The translations under genes and the position numbers were made by a program. 63,394 bases of DNA from Patescibacteria group bacterium (GTDB taxonomy: Bacteria > Patescibacteriota > WWE3 > 0-14-0-20-40-13), in NCBI GenBank assembly GCA_018896215.1, contig JAHINB010000017.1:1-63394 (forward strand). Reading direction: 5' to 3'. Below the pieces are notes generated by a model, which saw only the letters and a program-made list of their open reading frames with translations, did no database searches and was not told the DNA's origin. How positions within the stretch are numbered: position 1 is the first letter of the stretch; each line of letters starts with the position of its first letter. Shown here one piece after another: positions 5,395 to 62,221 of the stretch.

Positions 5395-5545
5395 GATAGA
5401 TGTTTATATTAAAAAATTCTAAATTAGAAATCCTAAACTCTAAACAATATCAAAATACAAATGTTCCAAATTTTTTGAACATTTGAATTTATAAAATTGT
5501 GATTTGTTTAGGATTTAGAGTTTAGATATTAGAGTTTGTTGTTTC
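5395..5545. repeat. AT-rich MITE-like inverted-repeat element (family D: ..ATCCTAAACTCTAAACAA.. / ..TTGTTTAGGATTTAGAG..)
   Basis: Long imperfect palindrome in the pilB/holB divergent intergenic region. Related copies at 27012-27110, 44017-44105, 49495-49570 and 59301-59433. Confidence 0.7.
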
Positions 5546-12779: not shown

Positions 12780-12796
12780 GGATAATCCCTAATCGA
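12760..12796. repeat. palindromic element, family C (GGGATTATCCC-gaatta-GGGATAATCCC)
   Basis: Perfect 11-nt arms. Contains the stop codons of both convergent genes gyrA and truB. Confidence 0.8.
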
Positions 12797-16912: not shown

Positions 16913-16970
16913 TTTTTTGGGGGAGACACCCCAAAACAATTCCTTGCCTTTAGGGGTGTCTCCCCGAAAT
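16913..16970. repeat. palindromic element family A (GGGGAGACACCCC ... GGGGTGTCTCCCC)
   Basis: 13-nt arms plus flanking TTT/AAA. One of eight copies. Confidence 0.85.
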
Positions 16971-19431: not shown

Positions 19432-19471
19432 ATTGGGGTACTACCCCGTAGGGGTAGTACCCCCTCGAATT
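19432..19471. repeat. palindromic element family B (GGGGTACTACCCC-gta-GGGGTAGTACCCC)
   Basis: Encodes the last residues (..RGGTTPTG) and the stop of the ATPase gene. Confidence 0.8.
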
Positions 19472-25285: not shown

Positions 25286-25327
25286 TTATGGGGTAGTACC
25301 CCTACGGGGTACTACCCCCTTGAATTT
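25286..25327. repeat. palindromic element family B copy
   Basis: GGGGTAGTACCCC-tac-GGGGTACTACCCCC. Encodes the C-terminal ..IQGGSTP plus the stop of the rluA-like gene. Confidence 0.8.
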
Positions 25328-27110: not shown

Positions 27111-28138
27111 TCAACCACCCCCAACACCTTTCTCTCCGCCTCTTCTAAATCTATGCCAAGCAATAGTGCTGCAGAAGCCGCCTTGTGTCCCCCACCCCCG
27201 AGCGCCTTAGCGTAAATTGATGTATCCACGCCTTTTTGCGACCTAAAACTCACATGAATTCTTTTGGGTTCTTCCTCATTTAGAGTAAAGCAAAAGTCGT
27301 ATCCTCTAATATCCTTGATGGAGTCCACCGCCCCACCAACTTTATCTGGTTCAATATTGCTATCAAGGTACTCTTGATGGCTAATCTTACTATAACAAAA
27401 TCTTTTCTCATCATTAAACTTAAGATTATTATAAATGATTGAGAGATATTTTTTGTTCTCTTTGGGATAATTGTAAAGCATAATGCTAGACAGTTCTTGA
27501 TAATCCACGGTTGAGATAAGTTCTGCGACAATGCCAAGGAGCTTTGGAGAAATTTTCCATTTCAAATGCCCCGTGTCGGACAAAATACCCAGCAAAATCA
27601 TTTTTAGAATTTTCGGGTGACACCCCAAAACAGTGCCTTTAGGGGTGTCACCCGAAAATTTCCTCCCTTCCCTAAAGATTTGGTAAATTATCTCACTCGT
27701 GGAACTAGCTGTAGTATCCACATAATTTACCCCACCAAAATAAACAAGTTTGTTTCTGACGAAATAACTATTACCGGGGTGGTGATCAAGATTAATAATC
27801 TTGAGATTTGGTGGCAAGGTAAAATTGATTTTGTTATCTTTAGTGTATCTTGCCAAATCGGTAGAATCCAAAGCCAGCAGGGTATCGTATTTGGACATAT
27901 CCATTTTGTCTAACCCAGTCTCCCAATTGACAATTTTGTACTCGGGTAGCAAATCATAAAAACTCCCCATAGTATCGGCGCAAACGACTGTGGGGTTCTT
28001 GCCCATGCTTTGCAAAATGTAGTACGAGGCAAGAGCGCTTCCAAACGAATCCCCATCGGGACGGAAGTGGAGAGGGATAAGCACATGATTACTGTTTGCA
28101 AGAGCCGTTTTAACTTCAGAGAAGGTATTATTTTCCAT
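27068..28138 (-). CDS. DHH/DHHA1 phosphoesterase (NrnA-like)
   Basis: PDGDSFGS, DHH and GGGH motifs in canonical order. Confidence 0.8.
   Translation of the reverse strand: MENNTFSEVKTALANSNHVLIPLHFRPDGDSFGSALASYYILQSMGKNPTVVCADTMGSFYDLLPEYKIVNWETGLDKMDMSKYDTLLALDSTDLARYTKDNKINFTLPPNLKIINLDHHPGNSYFVRNKLVYFGGVNYVDTTASSTSEIIYQIFREGRKFSGDTPKGTVLGCHPKILKMILLGILSDTGHLKWKISPKLLGIVAELISTVDYQELSSIMLYNYPKENKKYLSIIYNNLKFNDEKRFCYSKISHQEYLDSNIEPDKVGGAVDSIKDIRGYDFCFTLNEEEPKRIHVSFRSQKGVDTSIYAKALGGGGHKAASAALLLGIDLEEAERKVLGVVDNFQFSKSKNCFDV
27611..27658. repeat. family A palindrome inside the DHH gene (in frame)
   Basis: TTCGGGTGACACCCC...GGGGTGTCACCCGAAAA is translated as FSGDTPKGTVLGCHPK. Confidence 0.85.
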
Positions 28139-29984: not shown

Positions 29985-30043
29985 TTTTCGGGGAGACACC
30001 CCTAAAGGCATTTGAATTCTGTTTGGGGGTGTCTCCCCAAAAA
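29985..30043. repeat. family A palindrome, intergenic
   Basis: TTTTCGGGGAGACACCCCTAAAGGCA...GGGGGTGTCTCCCCAAAA. Confidence 0.85.
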
Positions 30044-30802: not shown

Positions 30803-31975
30803 TTAGACAAAGGCGGTAAGGAATTTGTCCGCGCTTATGACTCTAACATTACCAACCATTATGTCAATTTTGGGCTGAAACACTACTTGATACAAAAAAG
30901 GAATTCGCAGTCTCGCGCCGAAATAATTCAAATGAGAAGAGGGTATTGTGTCAGAAAGCTTTGCCTCCACCGCAAACCACGGCTTATTGTCCACCGCAAC
31001 CAGAAAATCCACTTCCCGACCCTCCGCATCCCGCAGATAGTAAAGATCAGAGCGAAACCCAAAAACATCGCGCAGATAATGGACGAATTTTAATAGATGC
31101 CCCGCTACCAAGTTCTCAAACCTTGCGGACTCGTCCGAAAGAACCGACCAATCCCACAAATACAGCTTCGTCATTTTCTTCAAAGAGCGCAGCATTTTTT
31201 GCCGGAACGGGGAAAGGCGAAAATGGTAGTAAAAAAGCTCCAAAATGGCAAGATAGTTGGCAACCGTTTTGTAGGCAACTTGCAAATCCTCGCAAAGCGC
31301 GTTTACCGAAAGCAAAGACCCAACTTTCTCCGGAAGGAGGTCCGCCAAAATCTGCAAGGTGGAAACATCCCCAATATAACGCAGATCCCGAATCTCCTCC
31401 TTGATCAACCGATCCACCCGATCGCTTTGCCAGCGACGCCAAAATGTGATGTTTCTTTTCGAAAACGGTTCGGGAAACGGACCAAAGCGCGACAATCTTT
31501 GCAAAATCTTCTCCCCATCTACGAGATCAACAAAATGTAATTCCTCAAAAGGCTTTGCTCGCCCCTTAGAACCGGTAAGCTCCACCAGGCTAAAAGGGTG
31601 CAAAACATAATACCGGCATCGACCAGAAAGCGAATCTCCGCCTCGGCGATACAAATCCATTTTGGCGCTTCCCGTAACCAAAAAACTGTGTCGTTCCCCC
31701 AGTCTGTCAAACAGACCTTTAATATAGGTTTTCCAGTGCCGAAACTTGTGAAGTTCGTCAAAAATCAGCAGTTCCGCCTTGGCAGGAAACCTGTAGCCTA
31801 CAATATCTTTGCGATCCGGCTGGTAATCCCAGTTAAAATAGGAAAAATTTGGATATGCAAATTTCCCAACCTGCTTTGACAAAGTAGTCTTTCCAACCTG
31901 CCTTGGTCCTCCAAGAAGCACGATTTTTTCCTTAACATCTTGGATTATTTCCTGCAAAAGATAGCGATTCTTCAT
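30803..31975 (-). CDS. AAA+ ATPase with DUF4143-type C-terminal domain (COG1373-like)
   Basis: Walker A GPRQVGKTTL, Walker B LLIFDELH. Same 390-aa size as the ATPase at 61049-62221. Confidence 0.75.
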   Translation of the reverse strand: MKNRYLLQEIIQDVKEKIVLLGGPRQVGKTTLSKQVGKFAYPNFSYFNWDYQPDRKDIVGYRFPAKAELLIFDELHKFRHWKTYIKGLFDRLGERHSFLVTGSAKMDLYRRGGDSLSGRCRYYVLHPFSLVELTGSKGRAKPFEELHFVDLVDGEKILQRLSRFGPFPEPFSKRNITFWRRWQSDRVDRLIKEEIRDLRYIGDVSTLQILADLLPEKVGSLLSVNALCEDLQVAYKTVANYLAILELFYYHFRLSPFRQKMLRSLKKMTKLYLWDWSVLSDESARFENLVAGHLLKFVHYLRDVFGFRSDLYYLRDAEGREVDFLVAVDNKPWFAVEAKLSDTIPSSHLNYFGARLRIPFLYQVVFQPKIDIMVGNVRVISADKFLTAFV

Positions 31976-34261: not shown

Positions 34262-35632
34262 ATGCAAAAGCCCTTACCAATTATAAAAGACGCTTACGAC
34301 TATGCCAAATCTACCCGGGGCAACATTACTCACGCCAAAGAAACCGTAAAAGTTTTAACCCAAAACGAAATAACTGACCCGCCAACCATTGTGACTGCCA
34401 TTTTGCACGACTGCCTGTATTACGGCAAAGGAAAACTTTCCGAGATTAAAAGTTTTTTTGGAAACGATGTGGCAAACATGGTTGTGGCTCTATCTAGGAT
34501 TGAAAGAATTCACCTAACTCCAAACGACCCTAAAAATCACGAAAAAATTCGTCGTGTTATTATGTCGCTATCTTCTAATTATAGAGTCTTTTTGATCAAA
34601 ATCTCTTGCCGGTTAGCAAGACTTCGAGCGTGTGGAAAATCCAAAACCCCCGAGTGTTTGTTGGTAGCAAAACAAGCCTTGTCGATTGATGCCCCACTTG
34701 CCAAGGCATCATCGTTAAAAAACATTGCGGGAGAGTTAAACGATTTGGGATTTAAAATCTCCGAACCCTTAAAGTATAAACAATTGAAAAATCTTATTCT
34801 TGATAAGGAAGTTTTTTTAAAAGAACGACTTTTGGGCGTGAAGAACAAATTAGAGTTGCTAATGGAACAAGCAAGCGTTTCGGCAGCCATTTCTTTTCGT
34901 AAAAAATCCCCCTACTCCACCCATCTTAAAATTTTAAAATACCTAGAAAAACGCAAGATTAAAGAGTACGGCGTTGAGAAAATCCATGATCTTATAGGTT
35001 TAAGAATAATTGTCAGAACCGAAAAAGATTGCTACAAAGCGCTGGATGCAGTACAAAAAAATTGGGGGGTGGAAATTAGCGAATTTGATGACTACATTGC
35101 CCGCCCCAAACCCAACGGCTACAAATCTATTCATACAATTATAAAAGTGGGACAGGCGATGTATTGCGAAATTCAAATTGTAACCACAAAAATGGAAGAA
35201 TTTAATAATTTTGGAGGGGCATCTCACTTAGGTTACAAAAATCCCAATTGGGTTAAGACATATATAAACAAGTTTGTTTCTGACGAAATTAAAAGCGGTG
35301 ATAAAACCTCCAATTTTAATCCCTTTTCCAAAACTATTTTCACCTTTACCCCAACAGGAGACATTATAGAATTGCCAGCAGGCGCAACTTGTGTTGATTT
35401 TGCCTACAAAATTCACACCGATTTAGGTAACAGGTGCGAGGGGGCATTGGTTAATGGAATAATCAAAAAACTAGAATACGAGTTGCAAAATGGTGACGAG
35501 GTAAAAATAATCCCCTCAAAAAGAAGGCCTTCTCCAATTGCCAAATGGATTGACTTTGTCAAAACCCCCGAAGCCAAAAAGCAAATTCGCCACTACAGCA
35601 ACATATTATCGGGTACTACCCGATTCGGGTAG
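34262..35632 (+). CDS. RelA/SpoT homologue (HD-like, synthetase and TGS domains), short form
   Basis: ILHD HD-like region; synthetase DLIGLRIIV...GYKSIHT; TGS IFTFTPTGDIIELPAGATCVDFAYKIHTDLG. Confidence 0.8.
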   Translation: MQKPLPIIKDAYDYAKSTRGNITHAKETVKVLTQNEITDPPTIVTAILHDCLYYGKGKLSEIKSFFGNDVANMVVALSRIERIHLTPNDPKNHEKIRRVIMSLSSNYRVFLIKISCRLARLRACGKSKTPECLLVAKQALSIDAPLAKASSLKNIAGELNDLGFKISEPLKYKQLKNLILDKEVFLKERLLGVKNKLELLMEQASVSAAISFRKKSPYSTHLKILKYLEKRKIKEYGVEKIHDLIGLRIIVRTEKDCYKALDAVQKNWGVEISEFDDYIARPKPNGYKSIHTIIKVGQAMYCEIQIVTTKMEEFNNFGGASHLGYKNPNWVKTYINKFVSDEIKSGDKTSNFNPFSKTIFTFTPTGDIIELPAGATCVDFAYKIHTDLGNRCEGALVNGIIKKLEYELQNGDEVKIIPSKRRPSPIAKWIDFVKTPEAKKQIRHYSNILSGTTRFG

Positions 35633-36391
35633 TACCCGAATTTTTCCTATTCTAACAACAAATTATCGATGTAGGGTTTTTTGATGTCACTGTCGCCATC
35701 CAAGGGATCTATGTAAGACTCCACAAAGTCTTTATATCTTGCAACAGTCATATCGCCCAACACCTCGTCCCAACAAAGCCAACCTTCTTTTATATTTTTA
35801 TTTATGTAGTAGTAGCTAGAAAATCTATAATCTTTAAGGGAATCTTTGCTCACCATTTCCAAAGGATTTAAATGGATATAGCGAGCAAGATGTAAAAACT
35901 GCTCCCCTGTTGTAATCGGGACTGCTTTATAAATCGCTTGGTAAAGTTTACCTACACGATCATTTTTTTCATTAAAATAATTAGTGTAGTTAGTACAAAT
36001 CTTTTTTGTAAGATCTGTTAATCCCTCCTTTTTCTTTAATTTGACGAGCAGGTGGTAATGGTTAGGCATAAGACAAAACGCTAAAAGTGAGATTTTATCG
36101 TAAGAATAATTCGGGGTTACAAATATTGACTGTTTCGTCTTAGGATCTTTGCGTTCTAAAACAAAACCAGGCTCTAAATAACGCCTTAAATTATTAATAA
36201 AAACATGGTAATCCTCCGAATCTTGAAATATTACTCTTCGTTCTACCCCTCGGTTATAAACATGGTAATACGCACCTTCCGCAAAAACTTTATAGATGTT
36301 CCTTGATGGCATAGTTACAACATTAATATCCTATTTAGCAGAAGTCAATACCTAAAGCAAATATTCGGGTAGTACCCGAATCGGGTACTAC
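35608..36391. mobile_element. REPtron-like unit: RAYT gene bracketed by inverted family-B double palindromes
   Basis: Left flank 35608-35645 is CGGGTACTACCCG-attc-GGGTAGTACCCG. Right flank 36364-36391 is CGGGTAGTACCCG-aat-CGGGTACTACC, the same sequence flipped. Confidence 0.7.
35647..36312 (-). CDS. REP-associated tyrosine transposase (RAYT; IS200/IS605 Y1 HUH family)
   Basis: YHVYNRG, LMPNHYHLLV (HUH) and the YIHLNP region; about 220 aa. Confidence 0.8.
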   Translation of the reverse strand: MPSRNIYKVFAEGAYYHVYNRGVERRVIFQDSEDYHVFINNLRRYLEPGFVLERKDPKTKQSIFVTPNYSYDKISLLAFCLMPNHYHLLVKLKKKEGLTDLTKKICTNYTNYFNEKNDRVGKLYQAIYKAVPITTGEQFLHLARYIHLNPLEMVSKDSLKDYRFSSYYYINKNIKEGWLCWDEVLGDMTVARYKDFVESYIDPLDGDSDIKKPYIDNLLLE

Positions 36392-36452
36392 CTTATAGCT
36401 AAAGCGCTAAATAGCCCTTTTATGCAAAACATTGTTGTAGTAAACTTACATT

Positions 36453-38428: not shown

Positions 38429-38466
38429 GATTAGGGATAATCCCAAATTTGGGATTATCCCTATTC
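38429..38466. repeat. family C palindrome (TAGGGATAATCCC-aaattt-GGGATTATCCCTA)
   Basis: Same arms as 12760-12796. Confidence 0.8.
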
Positions 38467-38529: not shown

Positions 38530-38814
38530 ATGAATAATACAAACCAAAGAGACAAAATAATTACCACCAATGTTAGATTCCCAGAGTCACAATGGTTACA
38601 AGTAAAAGTAGAGGCCGCCGAAATGGGCTTTAGCATCAACCAATACATTAACCGTATTATCGAACAAAGCTCTATGCAAAAACGATTGGCTTTAACCATT
38701 AAAGATAACAAATCCCCCGCTGTTTCATTCTGGAACTTACCAAAAATTGCCAAAAAATGGTCTAAACGAAAAGTATTAGAGATGTCAGAAGAAGATAAGA
38801 TAATTTATGCCTAA
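38530..38814 (+). CDS. ribbon-helix-helix-type antitoxin (VapB-like)
   Basis: TNVRFPESQWLQVKVEAAEMGFSINQYINRIIEQ. Overlaps the start of the PIN gene by 8 nt. Confidence 0.65.
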   Translation: MNNTNQRDKIITTNVRFPESQWLQVKVEAAEMGFSINQYINRIIEQSSMQKRLALTIKDNKSPAVSFWNLPKIAKKWSKRKVLEMSEEDKIIYA

Positions 38815-39229
38815 CAAATCAAAGGAAACCCTCTTTATAGATACAAGCTTTTTTAAAGCAATGTTAGATTCGTCCGACGACTTTCACAACAAAGCAGTAA
38901 AAACATTGAGTACAATCGAAAAAAACGGCAACCCACTTGTTACAACAAATTACATTTTAGATGAGGCATTTACATTAATTAGACAAAGGATGGGAGTTGG
39001 GGCATTAAAAATATTTAGAGAGGCGCTATTACAAAACGAATGGAGATTAAAAGTAGCCCGAACAACAATTCAAGATGAAGAAAATGCTTGGGATTATATG
39101 CTTAAAGACTGGAGTAATTTATCTTTTACCGATTGTGTATCTTTTGCAGTAATGAAAAGGCTAAGTATACAACACGCCTGCACATTTGATTCTCACTTTT
39201 CCAGCGCGGGCTTTTCCACGGTTCCCTAA
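38807..39229 (+). CDS. vapC: PIN-domain toxin VapC
   Basis: LFIDTS (Asp1), ILDEA, SFTDC and FDSHF acidic residues at canonical PIN spacing. Confidence 0.85.
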   Translation: MPNKSKETLFIDTSFFKAMLDSSDDFHNKAVKTLSTIEKNGNPLVTTNYILDEAFTLIRQRMGVGALKIFREALLQNEWRLKVARTTIQDEENAWDYMLKDWSNLSFTDCVSFAVMKRLSIQHACTFDSHFSSAGFSTVP

Positions 39230-39885: not shown

Positions 39886-39945
39886 ATTAGGGACGATCCC
39901 TAATACAATTCCGATCAAATGCCTCTTAAGGGATCGTCCCTAAAA
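39886..39945. repeat. family C palindrome (TTAGGGACGATCCCTAA ... TTAAGGGATCGTCCCTAA)
   Basis: Arms separated by about 25 nt. Solo arm pair at 42303-42323. Confidence 0.75.
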
Positions 39946-42423: not shown

Positions 42424-42445
42424 TTTCGGGTGACACCCGAAAAAT
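42424..42445. repeat. family A minimal palindrome (TTTTCGGGTGACACCCGAAAAA) in the lexA leader
   Basis: Arms as in 27611-27658 and 56430-56484, without a loop. Confidence 0.7.
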
Positions 42446-49570: not shown

Positions 49571-50653
49571 TTATCCCCTCCCCACCCTAAACTCCACCAC
49601 ATCTCCATCTTTGACTAAGTATTCCTTCCCCTCCAACCTTGCCATTCCTTTCTCTTTAGCTTTACCCCAACTGCCGGCTTCGATGTATTTTTGATAGGAA
49701 ATGACATCTACTGCAATAAATAATCTTTCAAAGTCGCTATGGATAACACCAGCGCATTTTTGGGCGTTCCAGCCTTGTTTAAATTTCCAGGCTCGGCTTT
49801 CTTTTTCCCCTGTGGTTAGAAATGTGGAAAGCCCCAACATTTTATAAGCTTGACGAATGACTCCGTCAAGGGGCGCTTCGGTGAGTCCTAAGTCGGTAAG
49901 ATAAGCATTTCGATCTACAGTTGACAATGACGAGAGTTCAAATTCAATCTTGGCGGATACTTTCATACGGGACGATCTCATTTCATCCGGGTTCGTCCCA
50001 TTTGGGACGAACCCGATTGAATCCTCAGAAACATTTAGCACAGGTAAAATAGGTTTTAAGGTTAGCAAATTAAACCCTTGTAATTCCTCCAATTCTTCTT
50101 TGGTCCACTTCCCGTTCGCCAATAATTTCCCTGCATCGAGAACCCCCACAGCTTTTTTCAAAACATTGGGGTAGTACCCCGCAGGGGTACTACCCCCTTT
50201 CTTCCTAATCTCCTTTGAGTCCACGACCTTTGATAAAATCTCCAAATCCTTTAGCTTTAATTCCGTGAGTAGCACCTCCCTATCGCTTTCTGGATTGATA
50301 GAGCCCTCTCGAATAATTTCCGCGTCCTCAAAATCTCTTAGAAGTAGAAGGATTAGGTCGACTTCCCTGATATGGGCTAAAAACTTGTTTCCCAATCCCG
50401 CGCCAGTGGATGCACCTTTGACCAGACCAGCGATGTCTATAAATGTGATAGTTGAGTACACTTTTTTGGCAGAGTGCGAAAGTTCTGCCAATTTGTCAAC
50501 CCGACTATCTAAAACTTCGACGACTCCCGTGTTCGGCTCAATAGTAGCAAAAGGGTAATTAGCAACACAGGCTATTTGACGCTTTAAAATAGCGTTAAAT
50601 AAAGTGCTTTTTCCCACATTGGGCAACCCCACAATCCCCACGGACAAACTCAT
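49571..50653 (-). CDS. ychF: ribosome-binding ATPase YchF
   Basis: GIVGLPNVGKSTLFNA, DIAGLVKGAS and a C-terminal TGS-like domain ending DGDVVEFRV. Confidence 0.93.
   Translation of the reverse strand: MSLSVGIVGLPNVGKSTLFNAILKRQIACVANYPFATIEPNTGVVEVLDSRVDKLAELSHSAKKVYSTITFIDIAGLVKGASTGAGLGNKFLAHIREVDLILLLLRDFEDAEIIREGSINPESDREVLLTELKLKDLEILSKVVDSKEIRKKGGSTPAGYYPNVLKKAVGVLDAGKLLANGKWTKEELEELQGFNLLTLKPILPVLNVSEDSIGFVPNGTNPDEMRSSRMKVSAKIEFELSSLSTVDRNAYLTDLGLTEAPLDGVIRQAYKMLGLSTFLTTGEKESRAWKFKQGWNAQKCAGVIHSDFERLFIAVDVISYQKYIEAGSWGKAKEKGMARLEGKEYLVKDGDVVEFRVGRG
49964..50019. repeat. family C composite (GGGACGATC.. / GGGTTCGTCCC-attt-GGGACGAACCC) in frame in ychF
   Basis: Translated as ..SIGFVPNGTNPDEMRSSRMK.. 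Confidence 0.7.
50165..50200. repeat. family B palindrome in frame in ychF
   Basis: GGGGTAGTACCCC-gca-GGGGTACTACCCCC is translated as KKGGSTPAGYYPN. Confidence 0.8.
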
Positions 50654-52434: not shown

Positions 52435-53022
52435 CTAGCTGACGGTTCGACCTTCGAGGGCTCTCTTTAAAGTTGTCTCATCGGCATATTCAATATCCGC
52501 CCCCGTCGGCAACCCCCTCCCAATTCGGGTGATTTTGACGCCCTCTATGTTACTAAGCTTTTCTTTGATGTAAAGAGCGGTGGCTTCTCCTTCCAAATCG
52601 GGATTAGTGGCAATAATAATTTCTTCTCCCCAAAAAACTCTCTCAACCAGGTCGTCAATAAACAGCTCCTCGGGTCCTATGCCCGCTATTGGATTGATGG
52701 ATCCATGCAAGACATGATAAACGCCACGATAACCCGATTTTTCAAAAGCCAGTACATCTAACGGGGATTGTACCACCAAAATGGTGTTTTTATCGCGAGT
52801 AAGATCGGAGCAAACGGCGCAAATATCGTTTTCCCCAACATTTTTGCAAATGGAGCAGATTTTGGTTTGTTTTAAATTACTAACAGAACTGGAAAACAAA
52901 TCCAAATCAGCTTGCGGGACGCGCAATAAGTGAAAAGTGAGTCGCTCGGCAGTTTTAGGACCAATTCCAGGCAATTTCTCAAAAGAGTCTTTTAGATTTT
53001 GTAAGGGTTTTGGTAACTTCAT
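52435..53022 (-). CDS. recR: recombination protein RecR
   Basis: LPGIGPKTAERLTFHLL HhH, C4 zinc finger CSICKN...CAVC, and Toprim. Confidence 0.93.
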   Translation of the reverse strand: MKLPKPLQNLKDSFEKLPGIGPKTAERLTFHLLRVPQADLDLFSSSVSNLKQTKICSICKNVGENDICAVCSDLTRDKNTILVVQSPLDVLAFEKSGYRGVYHVLHGSINPIAGIGPEELFIDDLVERVFWGEEIIIATNPDLEGEATALYIKEKLSNIEGVKITRIGRGLPTGADIEYADETTLKRALEGRTVS

Positions 53023-54584
53023 ACAGGAACCTCTCCATCAAACACCTCCCAGGCTTCTTTTGCTTTTGTTGACTCCGACTGCTCGGGTTCTATATTTTTG
53101 TCGCTTAAATCCTTTTCTACCGGCAATTTTTTGCCCAACACCACGGCAAGCAAAACCGGTCTACCCAAAATTTCCGATGCGGCATCCTCGACAATTCTAC
53201 GGCTGGATGGAACCGACAGCCTTTCTTTGTGAAAAGAGTAAAAAGCCTCGACAATTAAACGGTCTTTATCAATCCCCACAATCTTGCAAGAGCGCAGTAG
53301 CGCCTCAACCGAGTGGTTTCTAGGTCTTACCGCTTCGTAAAGCGCCTCTTTGGTAAACGGGGCTTTTCCAATTCGATCGGGTACTACCCCTATTGTCTCT
53401 TTTTTCGGGGAGACACCCCTAAAGGCATTGGGATCCTGTTTTTGGGGTGTCTCCCCAAAGTACCCGCCCGCCTCCTCTGTTTCTTCTTTCTTAAAATCAA
53501 CAGTGGCTACTAACAACGGCAAATGTCCCACCGAGGCGTAACGAATCTGCCCTTTTGCCTCCAGAAATTTCTTGATAACAGTTGAAATAAATTCTATTGA
53601 GACCTTCTCCAGCCCCTCTTTGGCAAATTCCGTCTCCCCCACCCCCAACTTTTCCATCAGCAATGCTTTCAAAAACTCCAAAAAATTATCCACCCAGTTT
53701 TCGGCGGTAATTCCACCTTCAAAAATTTTCTCTAGGTATAAAACCCCCGCTTTAGCATTTCCAGTTGATAAATTTAGAAGAAAATCAATAAATTGATCCG
53801 AATCTGATGTAACAACCAAATCGTCCACCGTCACCTTGCCAAAAACCACCTGCTCCAGCATGGTTTCGGAGTCTCTAAAGCCCCCTTGCGAGGCTTGAGC
53901 AATTTTTTTAAGGTCGCCATCTGTTAAATCGGGAATTGGCGTTCCCTCTTTTTTTTCGGCAGTGATAATGCGTTCCAGCTTTTTCGTGATATCTATGATG
54001 GAAGCCCGCTTAAATTCAAACTTTTGGCATCGGCTTCTGATAGTATCGGGGACTTTTCTACTTTCGGTAGTACACAAAACAAAGACAGCGTGCTTTGGCG
54101 GCTCTTCTAGGGTTTTTAAAAGAGCGTTAAAGGCCTCGGCAGTTAACATGTGCACCTCGTCAATAATGTAGACCTTGTATTTTGCTTGAGCGGGCGACAA
54201 AATTATGCGATCCCGCAGAGTTCTAATGTCATCTATTCCGCGGTTGCTGGCGGCGTCAATTTCTATCACATCAATAAAACTGCCGTTTTCGATAGCTTTA
54301 CAGGTTGGACATTCTCCGCAGGGATCGTGTTTATCGGGGTCGAACCCCAATGAAAGATCGGGTGCCTTCTTAGGGGTTCGACCCCTATGTTCCCCAATGT
54401 TTTCGCAATTCAATGCCTTCGCCAAAAGCCTTGCCATTGTCGTCTTTCCCGACCCCCGAGGTCCATAAAAAAAGTAGGCGTGGGCAAAGTTTTTTGTCGC
54501 GATCGCCGAAAGAATTGCTGTTGACAGCGATGCAGAACCTAAAAACTCGCTAAAATTTTTGGGGCGGTATTTGGTATAGAACAC
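53019..54584 (-). CDS. dnaX: DNA polymerase III subunit gamma/tau
   Basis: GPRGSGKTT, Zn module CGECPTC, DEVHML, LLKTLEEPP and SRC. Confidence 0.93.
   Translation of the reverse strand: MFYTKYRPKNFSEFLGSASLSTAILSAIATKNFAHAYFFYGPRGSGKTTMARLLAKALNCENIGEHRGRTPKKAPDLSLGFDPDKHDPCGECPTCKAIENGSFIDVIEIDAASNRGIDDIRTLRDRIILSPAQAKYKVYIIDEVHMLTAEAFNALLKTLEEPPKHAVFVLCTTESRKVPDTIRSRCQKFEFKRASIIDITKKLERIITAEKKEGTPIPDLTDGDLKKIAQASQGGFRDSETMLEQVVFGKVTVDDLVVTSDSDQFIDFLLNLSTGNAKAGVLYLEKIFEGGITAENWVDNFLEFLKALLMEKLGVGETEFAKEGLEKVSIEFISTVIKKFLEAKGQIRYASVGHLPLLVATVDFKKEETEEAGGYFGETPQKQDPNAFRGVSPKKETIGVVPDRIGKAPFTKEALYEAVRPRNHSVEALLRSCKIVGIDKDRLIVEAFYSFHKERLSVPSSRRIVEDAASEILGRPVLLAVVLGKKLPVEKDLSDKNIEPEQSESTKAKEAWEVFDGEVPV
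53376..53459. repeat. family B half-copy plus full family A palindrome, in frame in dnaX
   Basis: Translated as YFGETPQKQDPNAFRGVSPKKETIGVVPD. Confidence 0.8.
54334..54388. repeat. family C variant (GGGGTCGAACCCC ... GGGGTTCGACCCC) in frame in dnaX
   Basis: Translated as HRGRTPKKAPDLSLGFDPD, immediately before the Zn module. Same arms as 55288-55381 in pth. Confidence 0.8.
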
Positions 54585-54930: not shown

Positions 54931-54986
54931 TCTTTCGGGGAGACACCCCTAAAGGCAAGGAATTGTTTTGGGGTGTCTCCCCTAAA
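54931..54986. repeat. family A palindrome, intergenic
   Basis: TTTCGGGGAGACACCCCTAAAGGCA...GGGGTGTCTCCCCTAAA. Confidence 0.85.
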
Positions 54987-55001: not shown

Positions 55002-55640
55002 CTAAATTCCTTTAAAGATTGGGTTCTTTACAATTCTTTCGAACACTCTTTGCAATTCCTCTAACTCCTCGGGGTTAAAATCGTTTAGCACAAAATCCTC
55101 GGCTTTTTGTTCGTGATGATTGTAGTGATGTGGCGCCACCCCAATTCTTATTCTCCAAAAGTCCCTTGTGCCTAATTCTTCGATGATTGATAAAACTCCT
55201 TTGTGACCGCTAGCGCTAACTCCAAAGGAAATTTTGAACTTACCCAAGGGAATATCCATATCGTCATGGACAATGACAAAGTCATCATTGGGGTCGAACC
55301 CCAATACACCTGCCCGCAACGCTTCGCGTAGCGAGGCGGGCGGGGGATCGAATGCATTTTTCATAGGGGTTCGACCCCTTAGATCATCCAGTCCCTGACG
55401 GGACGATCCCGAAGTAAAGCGGAGGGTTCGTCCCGAATGAGAATGTCTCCCCAAAATTCTTAAAACTTCTCCTCCCGACTGGTTCATAAAACAGTTGGTT
55501 TTAATGCCTTTTTCACCCGAAAAACAGTTTAAAAAATCCGCAAACAGATGACCCGCATTATGGCGAGTCTTTTCATATTTTCTCTCTTTATTCCCCAAAC
55601 CAATTATAAGCATAGCTTCTGAGCTAACTATCTCCTTCAT
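55002..55640 (-). CDS. pth: peptidyl-tRNA hydrolase carrying a ~50-aa repeat-derived insertion
   Basis: LIIGLGNKERKYEKTRHNAG, MNQSGG, VHDDMDIPLGKFK and GHKGVLSI. Confidence 0.88.
   Translation of the reverse strand: MKEIVSSEAMLIIGLGNKERKYEKTRHNAGHLFADFLNCFSGEKGIKTNCFMNQSGGEVLRILGRHSHSGRTLRFTSGSSRQGLDDLRGRTPMKNAFDPPPASLREALRAGVLGFDPNDDFVIVHDDMDIPLGKFKISFGVSASGHKGVLSIIEELGTRDFWRIRIGVAPHHYNHHEQKAEDFVLNDFNPEELEELQRVFERIVKNPIFKGI
55288..55439. repeat. two adjacent family C elements (GGGGTCGAACCCC..GGGGTTCGACCCC; GGGACGATCCC..GGGTTCGTCCC) in frame in pth
   Basis: Translated as SGRTLRFTSGSSRQGLDDLRGRTPMKNAFDPPPASLREALRAGVLGFDPN. Confidence 0.8.
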
Positions 55641-55908
55641 GATGCACCCCCAACAAATGCTTCACCCCATGCTCCACCAACCGCGCTACTTCTTGTTCCA
55701 ACGACTGATGATTTTCCAACGCTTGGGTAGAGGCTTTGTCTAAGTTGACAATTACATCCCCCAAATAATATCTTCCATCGGGCAGTTCTTCGTTCATGTT
55801 AAAAGACAAAACATCTGTCGCATAGTCACGCTTGAGGTGTTTTTTATTGAGCTGGTGAATTTCCTTATCCCCCACAAGGGATATATTTATGAATGTATTT
55901 TTACGCAT
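55624..55908 (-). CDS. ybeY: endoribonuclease YbeY, N-terminally short
   Basis: TDVLSF and the H-x3-H-x5-H region HGVKHLLGVHH. Only 94 aa. Confidence 0.75.
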   Translation of the reverse strand: MRKNTFINISLVGDKEIHQLNKKHLKRDYATDVLSFNMNEELPDGRYYLGDVIVNLDKASTQALENHQSLEQEVARLVEHGVKHLLGVHHEGDS

Positions 55909-57209
55909 ATTGGCTTTTTTCGGGGAGACACCCCAAAACCATCCCTTGCCTTTAGGGGTGTCTCCCCAAAAGATTCTTCTCTTTTCTTTACTTCCGCCCC
56001 CCCCTGCCTAAGCGACTTTTCTGACACAATTATCCTCGTGGGACAACCAATGAGGTCGGCGTCCTTTATCTTTACCGCTAAAGATTCTTCGCGGTCATCT
56101 AGCAACGCATCGTTTCCTTCGCTAATCAACTTAGCATACAAAACATTAGACTGCTTGACAGCTTCGGGGTGATTGTTATCACAAAGAATATGGTATTTAA
56201 ATGGGGCAATATTTTCGGGCCAGATAATTCCGTTTTCGTCGTGACATAACTCCACAATGGTTCCCATTAACCTACCTACTCCAATACCATAAGCCCCAGC
56301 AATTACTGGCTTCTTTGAGCCGTCTTCGTCTGTAAAGAACAACCTCATGGGTTCGGTAAATCTAGTTCCCTGTTTAAAAATGTTCCCAACCTCAATGGAA
56401 TTAACAAATTCTGCTGTTTTGTCTTTTTCTTTCCGGGTGACACCCCTAAAGGCATTTGTCTGTTTTGGGGTGTCACCCGAAAAACCTTCCTCTCCATAGA
56501 TCTCTTTATTAATTGCAGTACCCTTTTCTTTGTCAATGTATATCCTATCTTCTCCCGCCTCACAAACAGTTTGATATTCGTGGGAATATTTACTAAAAGA
56601 TCCCCCACTTGCCAAAGTAAAATATGTTTTCTCCCCAATTCCCAGTCGGTCAAAAATTTTAGTATAGGCTTGCTTTGCTAATTCGTAAAATTCATCTAGT
56701 TGAGAATCATCCGCAGTAAAGGAATACAGATCTTTCATCATAAATTCGCGAGTGCGAAGCAATCCACCTTGAGCCCTTTTTTCGTTGCGGTATTTTGTCT
56801 GAAATTGATACACAAAACATGGCAAGTCTTTATAAGAATTAATATGACTTGTCATAAGTCTTGCCAAGGGCTCTTCGTGGGTAAATGAAAGCCCCACCTC
56901 TGAACCGTTGACAAGTTTTGTTTTAAACCATGAGTCCACTACTTTGTCATCCCAACGCCCGCTAGCCTTCCACACTGCTGGATCCTGCAAACTACTCATT
57001 AAAATCTCTTGGCCCCCAATGGCATTCATTTCTTCTCGAATGATCTGGATGATTTTATTGAGAACAATCAGACCTAAAGGCAAAAAGCTATACACCCCCG
57101 CCATTTCTTTATGGATAAAACCCCCGCGGATGAGCAATTTGGCGTTAATGCTAGTTTCGTCTTTAGGCGTCTCTCTTTTGGTTTTGGTAAATAACTTTGT
57201 TTGGTGCAT
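55887..57209 (-). CDS. proS: prolyl-tRNA synthetase (no editing insertion domain) with two family A insertions
   Basis: Class II motifs (FRDE-like TREFMMKD, GAYGIGVGR) and a C-terminal anticodon-binding domain. Start is MHQTKLF at 57209. Confidence 0.9.
   Translation of the reverse strand: MHQTKLFTKTKRETPKDETSINAKLLIRGGFIHKEMAGVYSFLPLGLIVLNKIIQIIREEMNAIGGQEILMSSLQDPAVWKASGRWDDKVVDSWFKTKLVNGSEVGLSFTHEEPLARLMTSHINSYKDLPCFVYQFQTKYRNEKRAQGGLLRTREFMMKDLYSFTADDSQLDEFYELAKQAYTKIFDRLGIGEKTYFTLASGGSFSKYSHEYQTVCEAGEDRIYIDKEKGTAINKEIYGEEGFSGDTPKQTNAFRGVTRKEKDKTAEFVNSIEVGNIFKQGTRFTEPMRLFFTDEDGSKKPVIAGAYGIGVGRLMGTIVELCHDENGIIWPENIAPFKYHILCDNNHPEAVKQSNVLYAKLISEGNDALLDDREESLAVKIKDADLIGCPTRIIVSEKSLRQGGAEVKKREESFGETPLKARDGFGVSPRKKPICVKIHS
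55915..55972. repeat. family A palindrome forming the 3' end of proS, just upstream of the ybeY start
   Basis: Translated as SFGETPLKARDGFGVSPRKK. Confidence 0.85.
56430..56484. repeat. family A palindrome (opposite orientation) in frame in proS
   Basis: Translated as FSGDTPKQTNAFRGVTRKE. Confidence 0.85.
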
Positions 57210-57239
57210 TTTCTTATATTTTCCTAAACTTCTTCTTAT

Positions 57240-57296
57240 CAAATTAGACTAATTAGTCAAATTAGTCAAATTAGACCAATTCTTTAATTAGACCGA
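57240..57296. repeat. family E repeat, intergenic, at the boundary of the accessory array
   Basis: aaattagactaattagtcaaattagtcaaattagaccaattc. Confidence 0.7.
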
Positions 57297-57833
57297 TTTG
57301 TTTTTGTAATCTAAACGCTTTTTAAACAGGTTTTCTCTAAATCCCCCATTTTTTACAAATTCCTCTTCTAACGACCTATAAAAATTATCTAGTAAATAGG
57401 TTTCTTTGTAGATCAAACAAACCATTATGTTTGCAGAGTCTTCTGGTTTTTCCAAAGACAAATTGCACCAATTGGTCAAATTGGACAAATTAGTCGAATT
57501 TGCAACTTCTTCTTTAAAAGAACGAATTTTTAAAACACGGGGGTCGTTTTTATCCCAAAGGGTAAGTTTGTTAATACGCAAAAAATCTTTGTAATCTTCT
57601 AGCAATTCACCAAAACTGGCGCGAGCAACGCTAACAAGTTTTAATTTGCTTTCACAACTTTTCTCTAAAACACCTTCCACAATGTTCTGTTTGCAACTCC
57701 TTGCTGCTTGAACCATTTGTTCTACAGTTCTTTTAAATGCAAAGGTTTTTAAATATTTTTGGCAAAACGCATCGTTGGCATCGTAAATTGTTGTTGCTAG
57801 CCTGTAAACTAACAAATTTTCGTATTTTTGCAT
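57288..57833 (-). CDS. four-helix-bundle protein (23S-IVS/S23p-like family) with C-terminal suffix domain
   Basis: YENLLVYRLA..., QMVQAARSCKQNIVEG and VARASFGELLEDYKDFL follow the four-helix-bundle family pattern. Confidence 0.65.
   Translation of the reverse strand: MQKYENLLVYRLATTIYDANDAFCQKYLKTFAFKRTVEQMVQAARSCKQNIVEGVLEKSCESKLKLVSVARASFGELLEDYKDFLRINKLTLWDKNDPRVLKIRSFKEEVANSTNLSNLTNWCNLSLEKPEDSANIMVCLIYKETYLLDNFYRSLEEEFVKNGGFRENLFKKRLDYKNKSV
57459..57503. repeat. family E repeat in frame in the four-helix-bundle gene
   Basis: Translated as NSTNLSNLTNWCNL. Confidence 0.7.
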
Positions 57834-58271: not shown

Positions 58272-59708
58272 TTACAATTTACCTGGTCTTACCTCAATAA
58301 CCTTCTTCTCCTCCTCATTGATATGGTATTTACCTTCTATCGTAGTTACCGTCTTCCTTCTTCTTGTTTTAGACGGTTTATACAAAACATGCAAGGGATA
58401 AAATTCAAAATAGTCTTTTTCATCAAACCAGGCGCATTTAAATTCAAACAGTCGTAATCCCGTCAACCGTGAGAGCGCCATCGCGTATATGGTAAGTTGG
58501 TCAATTGGCTGTTCTTTGGCGGCGTTGGGCTTGTAATCTAGGATATGAATTTGCCCATTACGAATTTGAACGAGGTCTATGTGTCCGGTAATAAGCTTTG
58601 GGAGCCCAGTGCCGACATTGCTTATATCTTCTGATCCTTGTCCCATTGCCGGTGTTGCACCTTGCTTCTGCAAATCGTCCCTATCGGGACTTTGTGACTG
58701 GCTGACCGTCCCGGTGCCGACATTGCCCCTATCTTCTGATCCCTGTCCCTCCCTTACCGAAATTTTGTTAAAAATCTCGAAGCCAAGTTGTGTCTGCATA
58801 TGCAACAAATCCTCGCGAGTGATGTAAACTGGCACTTCGGTTGCCACGGTCACGGAGTCGTTGAATAAAAAGAATTTTTGCACCGCCTCGTGTCGCATAG
58901 TACGAGCTTTGACACTTTGTAAGATGAATTGGCATAATTTAACAGCATAGTTGACTTTACTGCGAACAATCATCTGCTTTTTGGAAAATGTGATGGGCGC
59001 CTCCGATGCCCTACATCCGCCCTCGCTGGCAAAGTATTGATGGGGGCATTCCGAAGGCACAAGTTCCAAAAATTCTTTTAAGGGGGCAAATTTGCGGTGA
59101 GCGTATTCCTCTTGAATCATCAGAGCGCATTTAGCGCGGTGAAAGCGGTAGCGATAAAGCTGGCGGTGAGCAAGCGTTGCTGTAACTACGGTGTTTTTCG
59201 GCTCGTACTTTTTTACCACAAACTCTCGCATCCGTTGATATTTGCAATATTCCCCAAATTCCATCAACCAGGCCGAGACCGTCGACGGCTGAAGGGAAAA
59301 TCTAATATCTAAATTCGAAATTCTAGATAAATCCAAATTTTCCAAATTAGAATGTTCCAAATCTTTTTGTTTTGTGTTTTGAGCATTCATATTTTGAGTT
59401 TGTTTAGGATTTAGGGTTTCGGGTTTAGAATTTATTATTGTACAAGTCCCTTCCAACGAATGCCCCAGATTATAGAGGCTCAACGCGTTAAAAACAGTCT
59501 CCAGCGGATAGTGTTTGCCTAAATTTTTTTGCGGGGTAAAAGTTCTTCCACAGCTTTGACAGAGGTAAAGCTGAATTTTTTCGTACTTTTTTTGCCTAAA
59601 ACCCCGCCTCACAAAGCTTTTGCTTTGGCAGTACGGGCAACAAAATGTGTCGTAGATTGGTTTTTTACTTTCCAAATGTTTGAAGGAATTATAGTCGTGC
59701 AATCTCAT
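58272..59708 (-). CDS. Zn-ribbon (IS1 InsA-like CxxC..CxxC) + RecB/Cas4-like PD-(D/E)XK nuclease-domain protein
   Basis: N-terminus CPYCQSKSFVRRG...LCQSCGRTF. C-terminus EVPVY...GHIDLV...ILDYKP...QLTIYA (E, D, D-x-K and Q-x3-Y motifs). Confidence 0.6.
   Translation of the reverse strand: MRLHDYNSFKHLESKKPIYDTFCCPYCQSKSFVRRGFRQKKYEKIQLYLCQSCGRTFTPQKNLGKHYPLETVFNALSLYNLGHSLEGTCTIINSKPETLNPKQTQNMNAQNTKQKDLEHSNLENLDLSRISNLDIRFSLQPSTVSAWLMEFGEYCKYQRMREFVVKKYEPKNTVVTATLAHRQLYRYRFHRAKCALMIQEEYAHRKFAPLKEFLELVPSECPHQYFASEGGCRASEAPITFSKKQMIVRSKVNYAVKLCQFILQSVKARTMRHEAVQKFFLFNDSVTVATEVPVYITREDLLHMQTQLGFEIFNKISVREGQGSEDRGNVGTGTVSQSQSPDRDDLQKQGATPAMGQGSEDISNVGTGLPKLITGHIDLVQIRNGQIHILDYKPNAAKEQPIDQLTIYAMALSRLTGLRLFEFKCAWFDEKDYFEFYPLHVLYKPSKTRRRKTVTTIEGKYHINEEEKKVIEVRPGKL
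58605..58749. repeat. two ~40-bp direct repeats 105 bp apart, around a GTCCC-tatc-GGGAC palindrome, in frame between nuclease motifs
   Basis: Unit 58605-58644 versus unit 58710-58749. Translated as GQGSEDISNVGTG and GQGSEDRGNVGTG. Confidence 0.75.
59301..59433. repeat. complete AT-rich family D element in frame in the nuclease gene
   Basis: Translated as NSKPETLNPKQTQNMNAQNTKQKDLEHSNLENLDLSRISNLDIR. Confidence 0.7.
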
Positions 59709-60420
59709 CTCTAAGCAAACTCAAAACCTCGCTTTTTAAAGCTTTTCTTATAGAAGAAAACCTTGCAAGAGGCATTAACATGTTTAGATCTTCATCAATT
59801 ACCGAAGAGGTAACCTTTGATTCAACGAATTCTTTAAGTTTTTTTAAATAATCCAAAGTGTTCAAAGAAGTCCTTTGCTCAATCACTTTTTTGTTGTAGG
59901 GATATCCGTTGACAAAAAAATAATATATATCGTATATATCTCTACCTGCCACGGTCCCGTGTTTAGTGTAGCGATCCAGAACCGCCACCAATTTGTGAGC
60001 AAACATAGTATCTATTGTTTGACAAGTAAGATATCTATCAATATCCGCTAAATAAGTGGGTTTAAAAACATCAGAATCTAAAGCGAATCCAACGGCGTCA
60101 AATTTTAAAGTGTTGCGCAACTCTTTTGGAGCTGAATATTTTAACACATACTGTACCGTGGACTTGTTTCTGTTTTTAATGTTAAAATCTAGTTTTTTAA
60201 AAATCTCTTCCAGCGCCGTCCTTACAAAGTCTTTTGGAGTTTCTTGCTTTAAGTCAAAATCCAAATCAACGGAAAACCTGTCCAAATAATCTTGCATAGC
60301 GGCGCATGTCCCCCCTTTAAATATAAGAGCTTTGGAAAGTTGAGGGCTGTCCGCAATTTCTATTAGTATTTTGTGTAACTGGCTCCTATGCAAAGCTTCT
60401 TTTGGACTTGGTAAAATCAT
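59689..60420 (-). CDS. AbiEii/AbiGii-family nucleotidyltransferase toxin (type IV TA)
   Basis: LIFKGGTCAAMQDYLDRFSVDLDFD matches the DUF1814 signature (KGGTA..R.S.DlDF). Confidence 0.8.
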   Translation of the reverse strand: MILPSPKEALHRSQLHKILIEIADSPQLSKALIFKGGTCAAMQDYLDRFSVDLDFDLKQETPKDFVRTALEEIFKKLDFNIKNRNKSTVQYVLKYSAPKELRNTLKFDAVGFALDSDVFKPTYLADIDRYLTCQTIDTMFAHKLVAVLDRYTKHGTVAGRDIYDIYYFFVNGYPYNKKVIEQRTSLNTLDYLKKLKEFVESKVTSSVIDEDLNMLMPLARFSSIRKALKSEVLSLLRDEIARL

Positions 60421-61048: not shown

Positions 61049-62221
61049 TCAATAGAAATTATCTATGGTAATCAATTTTACTTTAGCATTGGGATACCTG
61101 TTATTAAAAGCGGAGCAAGCCCTTCCTTTTGCGGTTTTTATTTCGCAGGCAATTACTTCTTCGCCTTGATGTAAAACAAGATCAACCTCGGCTCCTTGAA
61201 CAGTGCGCCAAAAAGCTAATTTATATCCCGCGTTGCTGTATACATTGTGTTTTAATATTTCGCCGATGACAAAATTTTCAAACATCGCTCCAAAATCCCT
61301 TCGTAAAAATGGATTGGAGAAATCTTCTATTACGGCATTTCTCAATCCAAGATCATAAAAATATATTTTTGGCGCCTTGCCTATTTCGTCCCGTCTTTTG
61401 CTTGTGAACGGGTATAAACGGAAGAGAATAAAGCTTTGCTCAAAAATGGATATGTATCGCTGGACTGTTCTCGCGTCAACCCCAAGTTTTGCGGCAAGTT
61501 CGGAATAGTTGATTAGATTGCCGATTTGATAGGCAAGTAGTTTTAGAAGATTAGAAGCTACCGCGCGGTTTTCAATTAGGTTAAGCTCAAAAATGTCTTT
61601 ATAAATTGACGAGGACGCCAGTTCGCTTAAATATAAAGAGTCGGACGGGTTTTGGACTAGATACGGGTTTAAACCGTAAGTAAGTATTCTGCCAACAGTT
61701 GCGGAAAGGTCGAATTGATGAATTGACGGGGATAATTTTCCGGAAACCAGCCTTTCTAAAAAGTTATCGTGGAGTTCCTCCTCTGTTCTGGTTTGATACA
61801 AATATTCGGAAAAAGTAAGAGGGAATAATTGGTAGTCTATTTTGCGCCCGGCAAGGCTTTCAGACGCGGTATTTTTGATATTTAGGGCGGAAGATCCCGT
61901 GATAATAAGTTGTACATTCGGCATTTGATCATAAATAATCTTCGCCGCGCGCCCGGGGTCTGGCAGTAACTGGATTTCATCAATAATTACGGTTTTACTG
62001 CTTTGCGACCCGATAAATTGGCGATATGAATGGATATCATAAGTTTCAAAGTTTTTTCGCGCGGGGTCGTTGTCCAGCAAAAAATATTGCGCCTCGGGAA
62101 AAAGTCTTTTCAGCAAAGTGGTTTTGCCTACTTGCCGCGCTCCTAAAAGCAGAAGTATCTGCCTTCGGTTTTTAAAGTGGGATTTGATTTGGGAATCAAT
62201 CTGCCTTGTTAAAAGATTCAT
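61049..62221 (-). CDS. AAA+ ATPase with DUF4143-type C-terminal domain
   Basis: Walker A GARQVGKTTL, Walker B VIIDEIQ. 390 aa, same size as the ATPase at 30803-31975. Confidence 0.75.
   Translation of the reverse strand: MNLLTRQIDSQIKSHFKNRRQILLLLGARQVGKTTLLKRLFPEAQYFLLDNDPARKNFETYDIHSYRQFIGSQSSKTVIIDEIQLLPDPGRAAKIIYDQMPNVQLIITGSSALNIKNTASESLAGRKIDYQLFPLTFSEYLYQTRTEEELHDNFLERLVSGKLSPSIHQFDLSATVGRILTYGLNPYLVQNPSDSLYLSELASSSIYKDIFELNLIENRAVASNLLKLLAYQIGNLINYSELAAKLGVDARTVQRYISIFEQSFILFRLYPFTSKRRDEIGKAPKIYFYDLGLRNAVIEDFSNPFLRRDFGAMFENFVIGEILKHNVYSNAGYKLAFWRTVQGAEVDLVLHQGEEVIACEIKTAKGRACSAFNNRYPNAKVKLITIDNFY

Follow-up and report, generated by a model that had tools for sequence, protein, structure and literature searches.

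In-frame palindromic elements within protein-coding genes are classical in Rickettsia, where they are known as Rickettsia palindromic elements (RPEs) (Ogata et al. 2000; review PMC10969869). In Di Nocera et al. (2013) (PMC3733652), RPE-4 and RPE-6 are CGTC repetitive extragenic palindromes (REPs), and intragenic GTAG/CGTC REPs and REP dimers encoding 20–30 amino acids are described from Opitutus terrae, Thauera, R. conorii and others; many of these fall within genes for replication and repair, and two are found in some of the host genes. That source also describes TIRYT genes, which resemble the REP-associated tyrosine transposase (RAYT) genes and are flanked by repeated, partly self-complementary terminal inverted repeats (TIRs), some sharing GGGGWSAS. 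Vertical inheritance with co-conservation of enzyme and repeat is a hallmark of RAYTs (PMC5581495). Here we describe hairpin repeats in a 63,394 nucleotide contig, referred to below as the window (accession: JAHINB010000017.1, positions 1–63,394; assembly GCA_018896215.1), from a bacterium of the Patescibacteria, or Candidate Phyla Radiation (CPR), to whose proteins those encoded in the window were closest. With a probability of roughly 70%, the GGGGAGACACCCC / GGGTGACACCC element of this contig is a non-autonomous repeat of the REP-doublet type (like RPEs or REPINs, the hairpin-forming REP doublets), probably mobilised by a RAYT, of which in-frame copies have survived.

A search of the window for the arm GGGGAGACACCCC, allowing up to two mismatches, returned 14 matches arranged as seven inverted pairs, compared to 1.04 ± 0.96 (maximum 4) in the shuffles. 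Seven full copies were present, each of approximately 55 nucleotides and each containing the loop motif CTAAAGGCA, the strand of which was used to define the orientation of the element. A copy was laid out as TTT(C/G)GGGG-AGACA-CCCC, then TAAAGGCA with 7–18 further nucleotides, then TTTTGGGG-TGTCT-CCCC(G/A)AAA; the arms of a variant family, designated TGACA, were GGGTGACACCC. The arm ends were TTTC/GAAA without a terminal GTAG or CGTC tag, GTAG being found only centrally in the arm of the TACTA family described below. RNA folding gave a hairpin of 17–21 base pairs for every copy (−33 to −37 kcal/mol, z = −4.3 to −7.7). No Rfam family matched the elements. A terminator role was considered and rejected: whichever strand was read, a T run preceded and an A run followed the hairpin, and no copy was marked as resembling a terminator.

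Four of the copies were on the plus strand. These were at 29985–30043 (AGACA, intergenic, 19 nucleotides 3′ of efp), 53402–53459 (AGACA, in the linker of DnaX, residues 376–395, FGETPQKQDPNAFRGVSPK), 54931–54986 (AGACA, between the convergent rpsU and pth genes) and 56430–56484 (TGACA variant, inside prolyl-tRNA synthetase (ProRS), residues 242–260, peptide FSGDTPKQTNAFRGVTRK). The remaining three were on the minus strand, at 16913–16970 (AGACA, in the leader of yebC, which starts MSGHSH with its ATG at 16911), 27611–27658 (TGACA variant, in a DHH/DHHA1 (NrnA-like) phosphoesterase, residues 161–176, FSGDTPKGTVLGCHPK) and 55915–55972 (AGACA, in the C-terminus of ProRS, residues 413–432, FGETPLKARDGFGVSPRK, 6 nucleotides 5′ of the ybeY ATG at 55908). 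The first-pass annotation, made from the window sequence, had listed eight copies. Seven were the full copies above, but the eighth (42424–42445) was only one arm, a single self-complementary TGACA arm that forms a perfect 21-nucleotide palindrome (TTTTCGGGTGACACCCGAAAA) 7 nucleotides 5′ of the lexA ATG; this arm may be either a leftover of a lost copy or a site resembling an operator. A ninth copy that had gone unlisted was found as a TGACA remnant in pth (about 55509–55527, plus strand, peptide FSGEKG). The gene contexts agreed with those given before, four in enzymes (DHH, DnaX and ProRS twice) and four intergenic or in leaders. The two ProRS copies were, as had been proposed, in opposite orientation, because CTAAAGGCA reads on the plus strand at 56430 and on the minus strand at 55915; in the gene sense the DnaX and DHH copies were also mutually opposite. 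The proposed absence of stops in either orientation is only mildly special, since 3–4 of the six reading frames were open in each copy. The intact host frame is therefore a survivorship effect, with nothing peculiar to the element behind it.

The annotation had recognised only this one family, which belongs to a larger superfamily of nested doublets with further members in Pth, in YchF and at another site of DnaX. When a doublet was defined as a GGG-N5-CCC unit followed by its own reverse complement within 90 nucleotides, 17 perfect doublets were found in the window and none in second-order Markov simulations (n = 200). Each doublet consisted of two inverted arms separated by a spacer of 2–65 nucleotides, and every arm was in turn a short palindrome of the form GGG(G)-N5-(C)CCC. 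The arm-core families were AGACA/TGACA, TCGAA (DnaX and Pth), ACGAT, TCGTC (YchF), TACTA (six places) and ATAAT. TACTA doublets or arms occurred on both flanks of a RAYT-like gene, as tight doublets over gene 3′ ends at 19435–19463 and 25290–25318, as a tight doublet in ychF (50168–50196, peptide GGSTPAGYYP) and as a solo arm in DnaX (TCGGGTACTACCCC, 53377–53391) that adjoined the AGACA copy. Tight ATAAT doublets were present where the 3′ ends of gyrA and truB overlap (12762–12789) and in an intergenic position (38434–38461), and a tight TCGTC doublet was present in ychF (49982–50021). The ACGAT family was represented by an intergenic long-loop element on the minus strand (39887–39943), which had the loop motif ...GGCA / TGCCT...TTA in common with the AGACA family.

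The AGACA, TGACA, TCGAA and ACGAT families had a ...TTTTGGGG junction and TAA(G)A(A)GGCA in the loop in common, and are homologous because they share this loop motif. The arm cores of these four long-loop families differed, with complementary changes on both arms. As the doublets had been picked for perfect complementarity, formal covariation statistics on the arms would have been circular, and copies with the same loop and different arms were relied on instead. The clearest pair was a TGACA copy in the pth gene of a JGI contig (L095) and the C-terminal ProRS copy with its AGACA arms: the loop (TAAAGGCAAGGGATGGTTTT) was identical and the arms differed at two positions per side, in a complementary manner. 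The window contained 23 units or remnants, 11 fully intragenic, four across gene 3′ ends and eight intergenic. The repeats were thus enriched outside genes, given a noncoding share of 10.6% (89.4% coding; G+C content 42.7%), yet frequent within them. A further doublet family (GGGGCAGTGCCCC / GGGGCACTGCCCC) was observed on the contig of a relative (L089:549–579), and the set of arm cores seems to be particular to each of the related genomes.

The window ProRS (55887–57209, minus strand) is a bacterial-type enzyme of 440 amino acids without the INS domain and hosts two elements. Alignment with 19 CPR orthologues of 407–426 amino acids showed that none had either segment in the form found here, although in one (P0002) the internal site was occupied by a shorter doublet. 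Approximately 17 extra residues were due to the internal copy, in a variable loop at the position taken by the INS editing domain in other bacterial ProRS. The C-terminal copy sat between ...VKKREES and the terminal KPICVKIHS; without the copy, the C-terminus was normal and resembled that of the orthologue P0006. An AlphaFold2 model of ProRS, for which the orthologue alignment was the input, had a per-residue confidence (pLDDT) of 85–96 over most of the enzyme body and below 50 at residues 244–263 and 420–440, which are the two element peptides. These low values would fit exposed or disordered loops. Clean indels of 15–20 amino acids had been expected from such alignments; the insertions were found, but not with a uniform size, as the net additions were 17 and 18 amino acids in ProRS and 11 in DHH compared to most orthologues, and the DnaX linker was variable.

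DnaX (gamma/tau; 521 amino acids, 53019–54584, minus strand) hosts three units. The AGACA copy falls in the hypervariable, length-variable linker after domain III. The second unit is the solo TACTA arm next to it, and the third is a TCGAA-family element in the loop of the Zn module (54333–54388, minus strand, RGRTPKKAPDLSLGFDPD). This last element (GGGGTCGAACCCC) formed a 15 amino acid insert relative to E. coli gamma and was absent from most CPR orthologues. The same loop (alignment columns 90–130), which runs from the first Cys to the CxxC, held unrelated insertions of 6–35 amino acids in six other CPR orthologues (P0242–P0244, P0248, P0251 and P0253) and thus seems to be a hotspot for insertions in general. 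A palindromic origin was also considered for the DnaX insert of P0248 (L097) and rejected, as its repeats were direct and not inverted; a resemblance to 'NPNERS' was likewise dropped.

Pth was 212 amino acids long in the window and 161 amino acids long in L098, a syntenic relative (ProRS 62% identical) that had no such repeats over 13.5 kb. An alignment of the two showed clean gaps exactly at the element positions. In addition to the TGACA remnant, the window pth contained a TCGAA-family element with a 63-nucleotide GC-rich loop (55290–55378, minus strand) and a degenerate doublet (GGGACGATCCC ... GGGTTCGTCCC, 55397–55437). On these comparisons, the ProRS, DnaX, DHH and Pth segments are shown to be lineage-specific in-frame additions at variable loops, linkers and termini.

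The same copies were present in near-identical strains (97–100% nucleotide identity), represented by one ENA assembly (L004) and six JGI contigs (L091–L096). The elements are not assembly artefacts. A reading of the segments as normal coding sequence of ancestral origin, or as an artefact of assembly, with the repeats coincidental, is refuted and has next to no probability left: the segments are absent from orthologues of ProRS, DnaX and DHH and correspond to gaps in Pth, the same DNA occurs at intergenic sites, the counts depart from those of shuffled sequence and three independent assemblies concur. Only the ychF doublets, which gave no length difference against a distant homologue, would favour it.

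Some variation between strains was found. The pth gene of L095 contained a full 57-nucleotide TGACA copy (L095:661–717) where the window and L091 had only TTTT...TCACCCGAAAAA; the difference, an in-frame indel of 39 nucleotides or 13 codons, reads as an internal deletion. The copy in the yebC leader differed by a 4-nucleotide loop indel between the window and both L004 and L096. An exact 21-mer scan of the GTDB species representatives gave no matches, and an arm-pair scan of public genomes returned only an unrelated Gaiellaceae locus and an unrelated JGI contig (L090). The AGACA family is therefore confined, as far as these scans reach, to the present population.

A HUH/Y1 transposase gene of the RAYT/TIRYT type, which the first-pass annotation had overlooked, is encoded at 35647–36312 (minus strand, 221 amino acids, motifs YYHVYNRG, CLMPNHYHLL and ARYIHLNP). 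It was the sole Y1_Tnp (PF01797) gene within the window, with a Pfam score of 34.5 bits against a cut-off of 23, and its single and best NCBIfam match was the REP-associated tyrosine transposase (NF047646). The HUH motif CLMPNHYHLL and the Tyr motif ARYIHLNP were invariant in 18 homologues. The motif pattern (MP..., YHV.NRG, DY..F, CLMPNH.HLL, RYI..NP and.SS) agreed by eye with the published TIRYT alignment (PMC3733652, Additional file 5), the TIRYT signature used being MPR.., YHV.QRGN.R, CLM.NH.HLL, RYIE.NPVRA and WSS (Di Nocera 2013).

Both flanks of this gene carried TACTA doublets. The first (TCGGGTACTACCCGA TT CGGGTAGTACCCGA, 35609–35639) was 8 nucleotides 3′ of the stop codon and the second, with a slightly degenerate second arm (36365–36393), was approximately 53 nucleotides 5′ of the start. 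The gene order histidyl-tRNA synthetase (HisRS)-RAYT-RelA was kept in relatives in which the enzyme was 87% and 70% identical at the amino acid level, and the flanking doublets TCGGGTACTACCCGA/TCGGGTAGTACCCGA were identical in the relatives with this synteny (L087–L089). The kept synteny and identical flanks point to vertical inheritance, with enzyme and repeat conserved together. Relatives of the Y1 protein were found at no fewer than 591 loci (at least 591) in the GTDB species representatives, mostly in Patescibacteria. Among the loci inspected, eight CPR homologues (L007, L013, L017, L023, L030, L060, L061 and L071) had their own nested doublets on both flanks, those of L030 having a GGGTTCGACCC core and spacers of 10–25 nucleotides. 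The hairpin repeats are apparently partnered with a domesticated transposase gene.

Compared to RPEs, the elements of the window are likewise dispersed palindromes, which lie between genes and also, with the frame kept and no stops, within many housekeeping genes of a reduced genome; some genes are struck twice, and short peptides are added at permissive sites. The RPE-like behaviour that the first-pass annotation had noted therefore stands, but its surprise at an 'unrelated genome type' is lessened, as in-frame intragenic REPs are already known outside Rickettsia (PMC3733652). The elements also differ from RPEs, being approximately 30–95 nucleotides long compared to about 100–150 nucleotides for classical RPE-1, with arms that are nested GGGG-N5-CCCC palindromes and a Patescibacteria metagenome-assembled genome (MAG) as host. 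RPEs have no known enzyme, whereas here a RAYT/TIRYT-like gene is flanked by related doublets. Homology to the RPE-1 to RPE-10 families is not expected because the host is unrelated and the element shorter. As a RAYT/TIRYT-like gene is present in the window, the better analogy is therefore to REP/REPIN-RAYT systems than to RPEs without an enzyme, although the RPE analogy itself holds.

REP/REPIN-RAYT systems (Nunvar 2010; Bertels & Rainey 2011, PMC3116915; Bertels 2017, PMC5581495) resemble the present one in their inverted doublets of small palindromes that form a long hairpin, in a single-copy HUH/Y1 gene flanked by repeats (here single within the window, with TACTA doublets as the flanking repeats), in a gene position conserved across relatives that implies vertical inheritance and in several repeat families side by side in one genome. 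They differ in that about half of the copies here are intragenic, no terminal GTAG tag is present, copy number is possibly low and the enzyme, which is under the NCBIfam RAYT cut-off, resembles the 'TIRYT' branch. With the TIRYT genes and 'TIRtrons' of PMC3733652 it shares, by eye, the protein motif pattern, and also flanking inverted repeats, some of them 'double palindromic'. By motif comparison, the start of the AGACA arm (GGGGAGAC) fits GGGGWSAS of that source, whereas the TACTA arms that flank the RAYT (CGGGTACT) do not. The REP dimers described there add 20–30 amino acids in replication and repair genes, sometimes two per gene, whereas mainly translation and replication enzymes are affected here; the hosts named there are Proteobacteria, Acidobacteria, the PVC group and others, compared to CPR here. 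Short non-autonomous hairpin repeats with occasional in-frame fusions are also typical of MITEs (miniature transposable elements with inverted repeats) such as Correia, ERIC, RUP and Nezha. Classical MITEs come from insertion sequence (IS) elements with a DDE transposase and have target-site duplications; in contrast, the window contained no IS with matching ends and no target-site duplication.

We propose that the repeats would have spread within this Patescibacteria lineage and that the likeliest driver would be single-strand cleavage and joining by the vertically inherited enzyme at 35647–36312, whose flanks carry doublets of the same design as the spreading repeats. Many insertions would strike genes because the genome is approximately 89% coding. 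Survivors would be those in which the frame was kept, no stop codon was introduced and the site lay in a surface loop, linker or terminus, and they would be translated as disordered peptides rich in G, P, T, S and K in ProRS (twice), DnaX, DHH, Pth and YchF. From the design that they have in common (CGGGTACTACCCG compared to CGGGTGACACCCG), we infer that the RAYT-like enzyme mobilises the AGACA/TGACA family. The copies are probably neutral passengers and not functional.

Several observations weigh against this proposal. Only the TACTA family adjoins the RAYT gene, and the AGACA/TGACA family does not. The RAYT-like protein scored 52 bits on NF047646, under the curated cut-off of 80, and a PDB sequence search with it detected no solved relative. 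No filled-versus-empty polymorphism was found among strains at 97–99.5% identity, which have all copies in common, and no target-site duplication or other direct duplication flanked the copies. All six JGI contigs with exact AGACA arms mapped within the 63-kb window, so that the AGACA family may have few members grouped in one region, in contrast to classical populations of REPINs. Compared to YchF of H. influenzae (1jal), neither ychF doublet altered the net length; there, the palindromic sequence seems to replace existing codons instead of adding to them, and simple insertion does not therefore account for all intragenic copies. Finally, the ProRS orthologue in L002 (70% identical) contained a shorter doublet (GGGTGAAACCC / GGGTTTCACCC, L002:3524–3557) in the matching loop and frame, its arms differing from those of the internal window copy by one compensatory pair. 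This doublet may go back to an early insertion that both enzymes share or have arisen independently, and loop orientation does not tell the two apart because it can flip via recombination between the arms. It could also reflect long retention under selection in place of neutral passage.

The position of the RAYT gene apart from the AGACA/TGACA copies could also mean that these are selfish palindromes like RPEs or MITEs that spread without Y1, through another transposase encoded elsewhere, hairpin-driven recombination or gene conversion, with the RAYT serving the TACTA family or none. The copies do form a local cluster, with five in 53.4–56.5 kb if that of L095 is included, arm and loop variants are incongruent in a way that suggests conversion between copies, and the RPEs of Rickettsia themselves have no known enzyme (PMC10969869). 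We nevertheless regard spread without Y1 as unlikely, as the arm design equals that of the doublets flanking the RAYT, a RAYT homologue (L030) is flanked by long-spacer doublets whose core is present in the window, and no further transposase was seen in the window.

The retention of a related doublet in the matching loop and frame of the 70%-identical ProRS bears on a further possibility, that the hairpins are functional and selected, as mRNA structures that tune translation or stability or as sites for a dimeric DNA-binding protein, and adaptive within genes. The perfect complementarity of the arms within coding sequence, the compensatory differences between copies and the very stable folding would agree with this, as would the solo arm close upstream of lexA and the copy immediately upstream of ybeY. 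The elements, however, lie in both orientations and in various frames, within genes that are unrelated as well as between genes, and have neither an Rfam match nor a terminator-like architecture. The syntenic relative L098 has none, and in the present strain the pth copy is half deleted with its host ORF intact. A selected function is accordingly much the less probable account, and mobilisation by the RAYT-like enzyme with neutral survival of copies is preferred.

ProRS also varied between strains. In a near-identical strain (L093:785–2218; also L091), with flanks 99.9–100% identical, the bacterial-type ProRS of the window (55980–57236) was replaced by an archaeal-type ProRS of 478 amino acids that ends ...AYFAQSY. 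A 97-nucleotide remnant of the 3′ part of the bacterial ProRS (90.7% identical to window 56080–56176) was fused directly to the C-terminal element in this strain, and the junction of the swap was the element edge (window 55979). L097, a more distant syntenic MAG, contained a fragment of an archaeal-type ProRS (ProRS-C_1).

A more speculative extension, which we think doubtful, is that the copies are not inert and that intragenic palindromy is actively kept, either through correction of one arm with the other as template or through recurrent conversion that depends on the RAYT. It would be suggested by the copies with identical loops and compensatory arm changes, by the related doublet in the same loop and frame of the 70%-identical ProRS and by the coincidence of the ProRS swap boundary with the element edge. 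If true, REPIN-type elements would be a standing source of lineage-specific protein loops and of recombination junctions in CPR.

Other features of the window were noted. Defence or toxin-type genes were found near the element-rich region (57288–57833, 59689–60420 and 38807–39229), namely a 23S_rRNA_IVP-family gene, which is directly 5′ of ProRS and was syntenic in L002 and L098, and AbiEii and PIN genes. Two AAA_14/DUF4143 ATPase genes of 390 amino acids each were encoded at 30803–31975 and 61049–62221; the protein of the former was present on eight public contigs and may be the product of a repeated or mobile gene. Additionally, AT-rich nested inverted repeats with arms of 38–40 nucleotides that were 70% complementary (CTAAACTCTAAAC...) were present at 5418–5526, in intergenic DNA with a T2SSE/MshEN gene on one side and a DNA_pol3_delta2 gene on the other, and were conserved in L004.

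Proteins of CPR/Patescibacteria carry odd lineage-specific insertions, and the genomes of these organisms are thought to be poor in mobile DNA. Intragenic REPs and RPEs as such are already known (Ogata 2000; Di Nocera 2013). The present case differs in the host phylum, a literature search for RAYT, REP or REPIN in CPR/Patescibacteria having found no relevant report; the nested GGGG-N5-CCCC arms, the lack of a terminal GTAG/CGTC tag and the large proportion of copies inside essential genes of translation and replication are also distinct. RAYT/REPIN-type systems and RPE-like 'protein decoration' would thereby be extended to this phylum. The repeats also have a practical consequence, as they break assemblies, several of the JGI contigs ending at them, and can confuse gene calling and marker-gene alignments. 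A doublet system with a RAYT-like gene that writes loops of 10–45 residues into ProRS, DnaX, Pth, YchF and an NrnA-like enzyme would offer a concrete, testable source for the lineage-specific insertions of CPR proteins.

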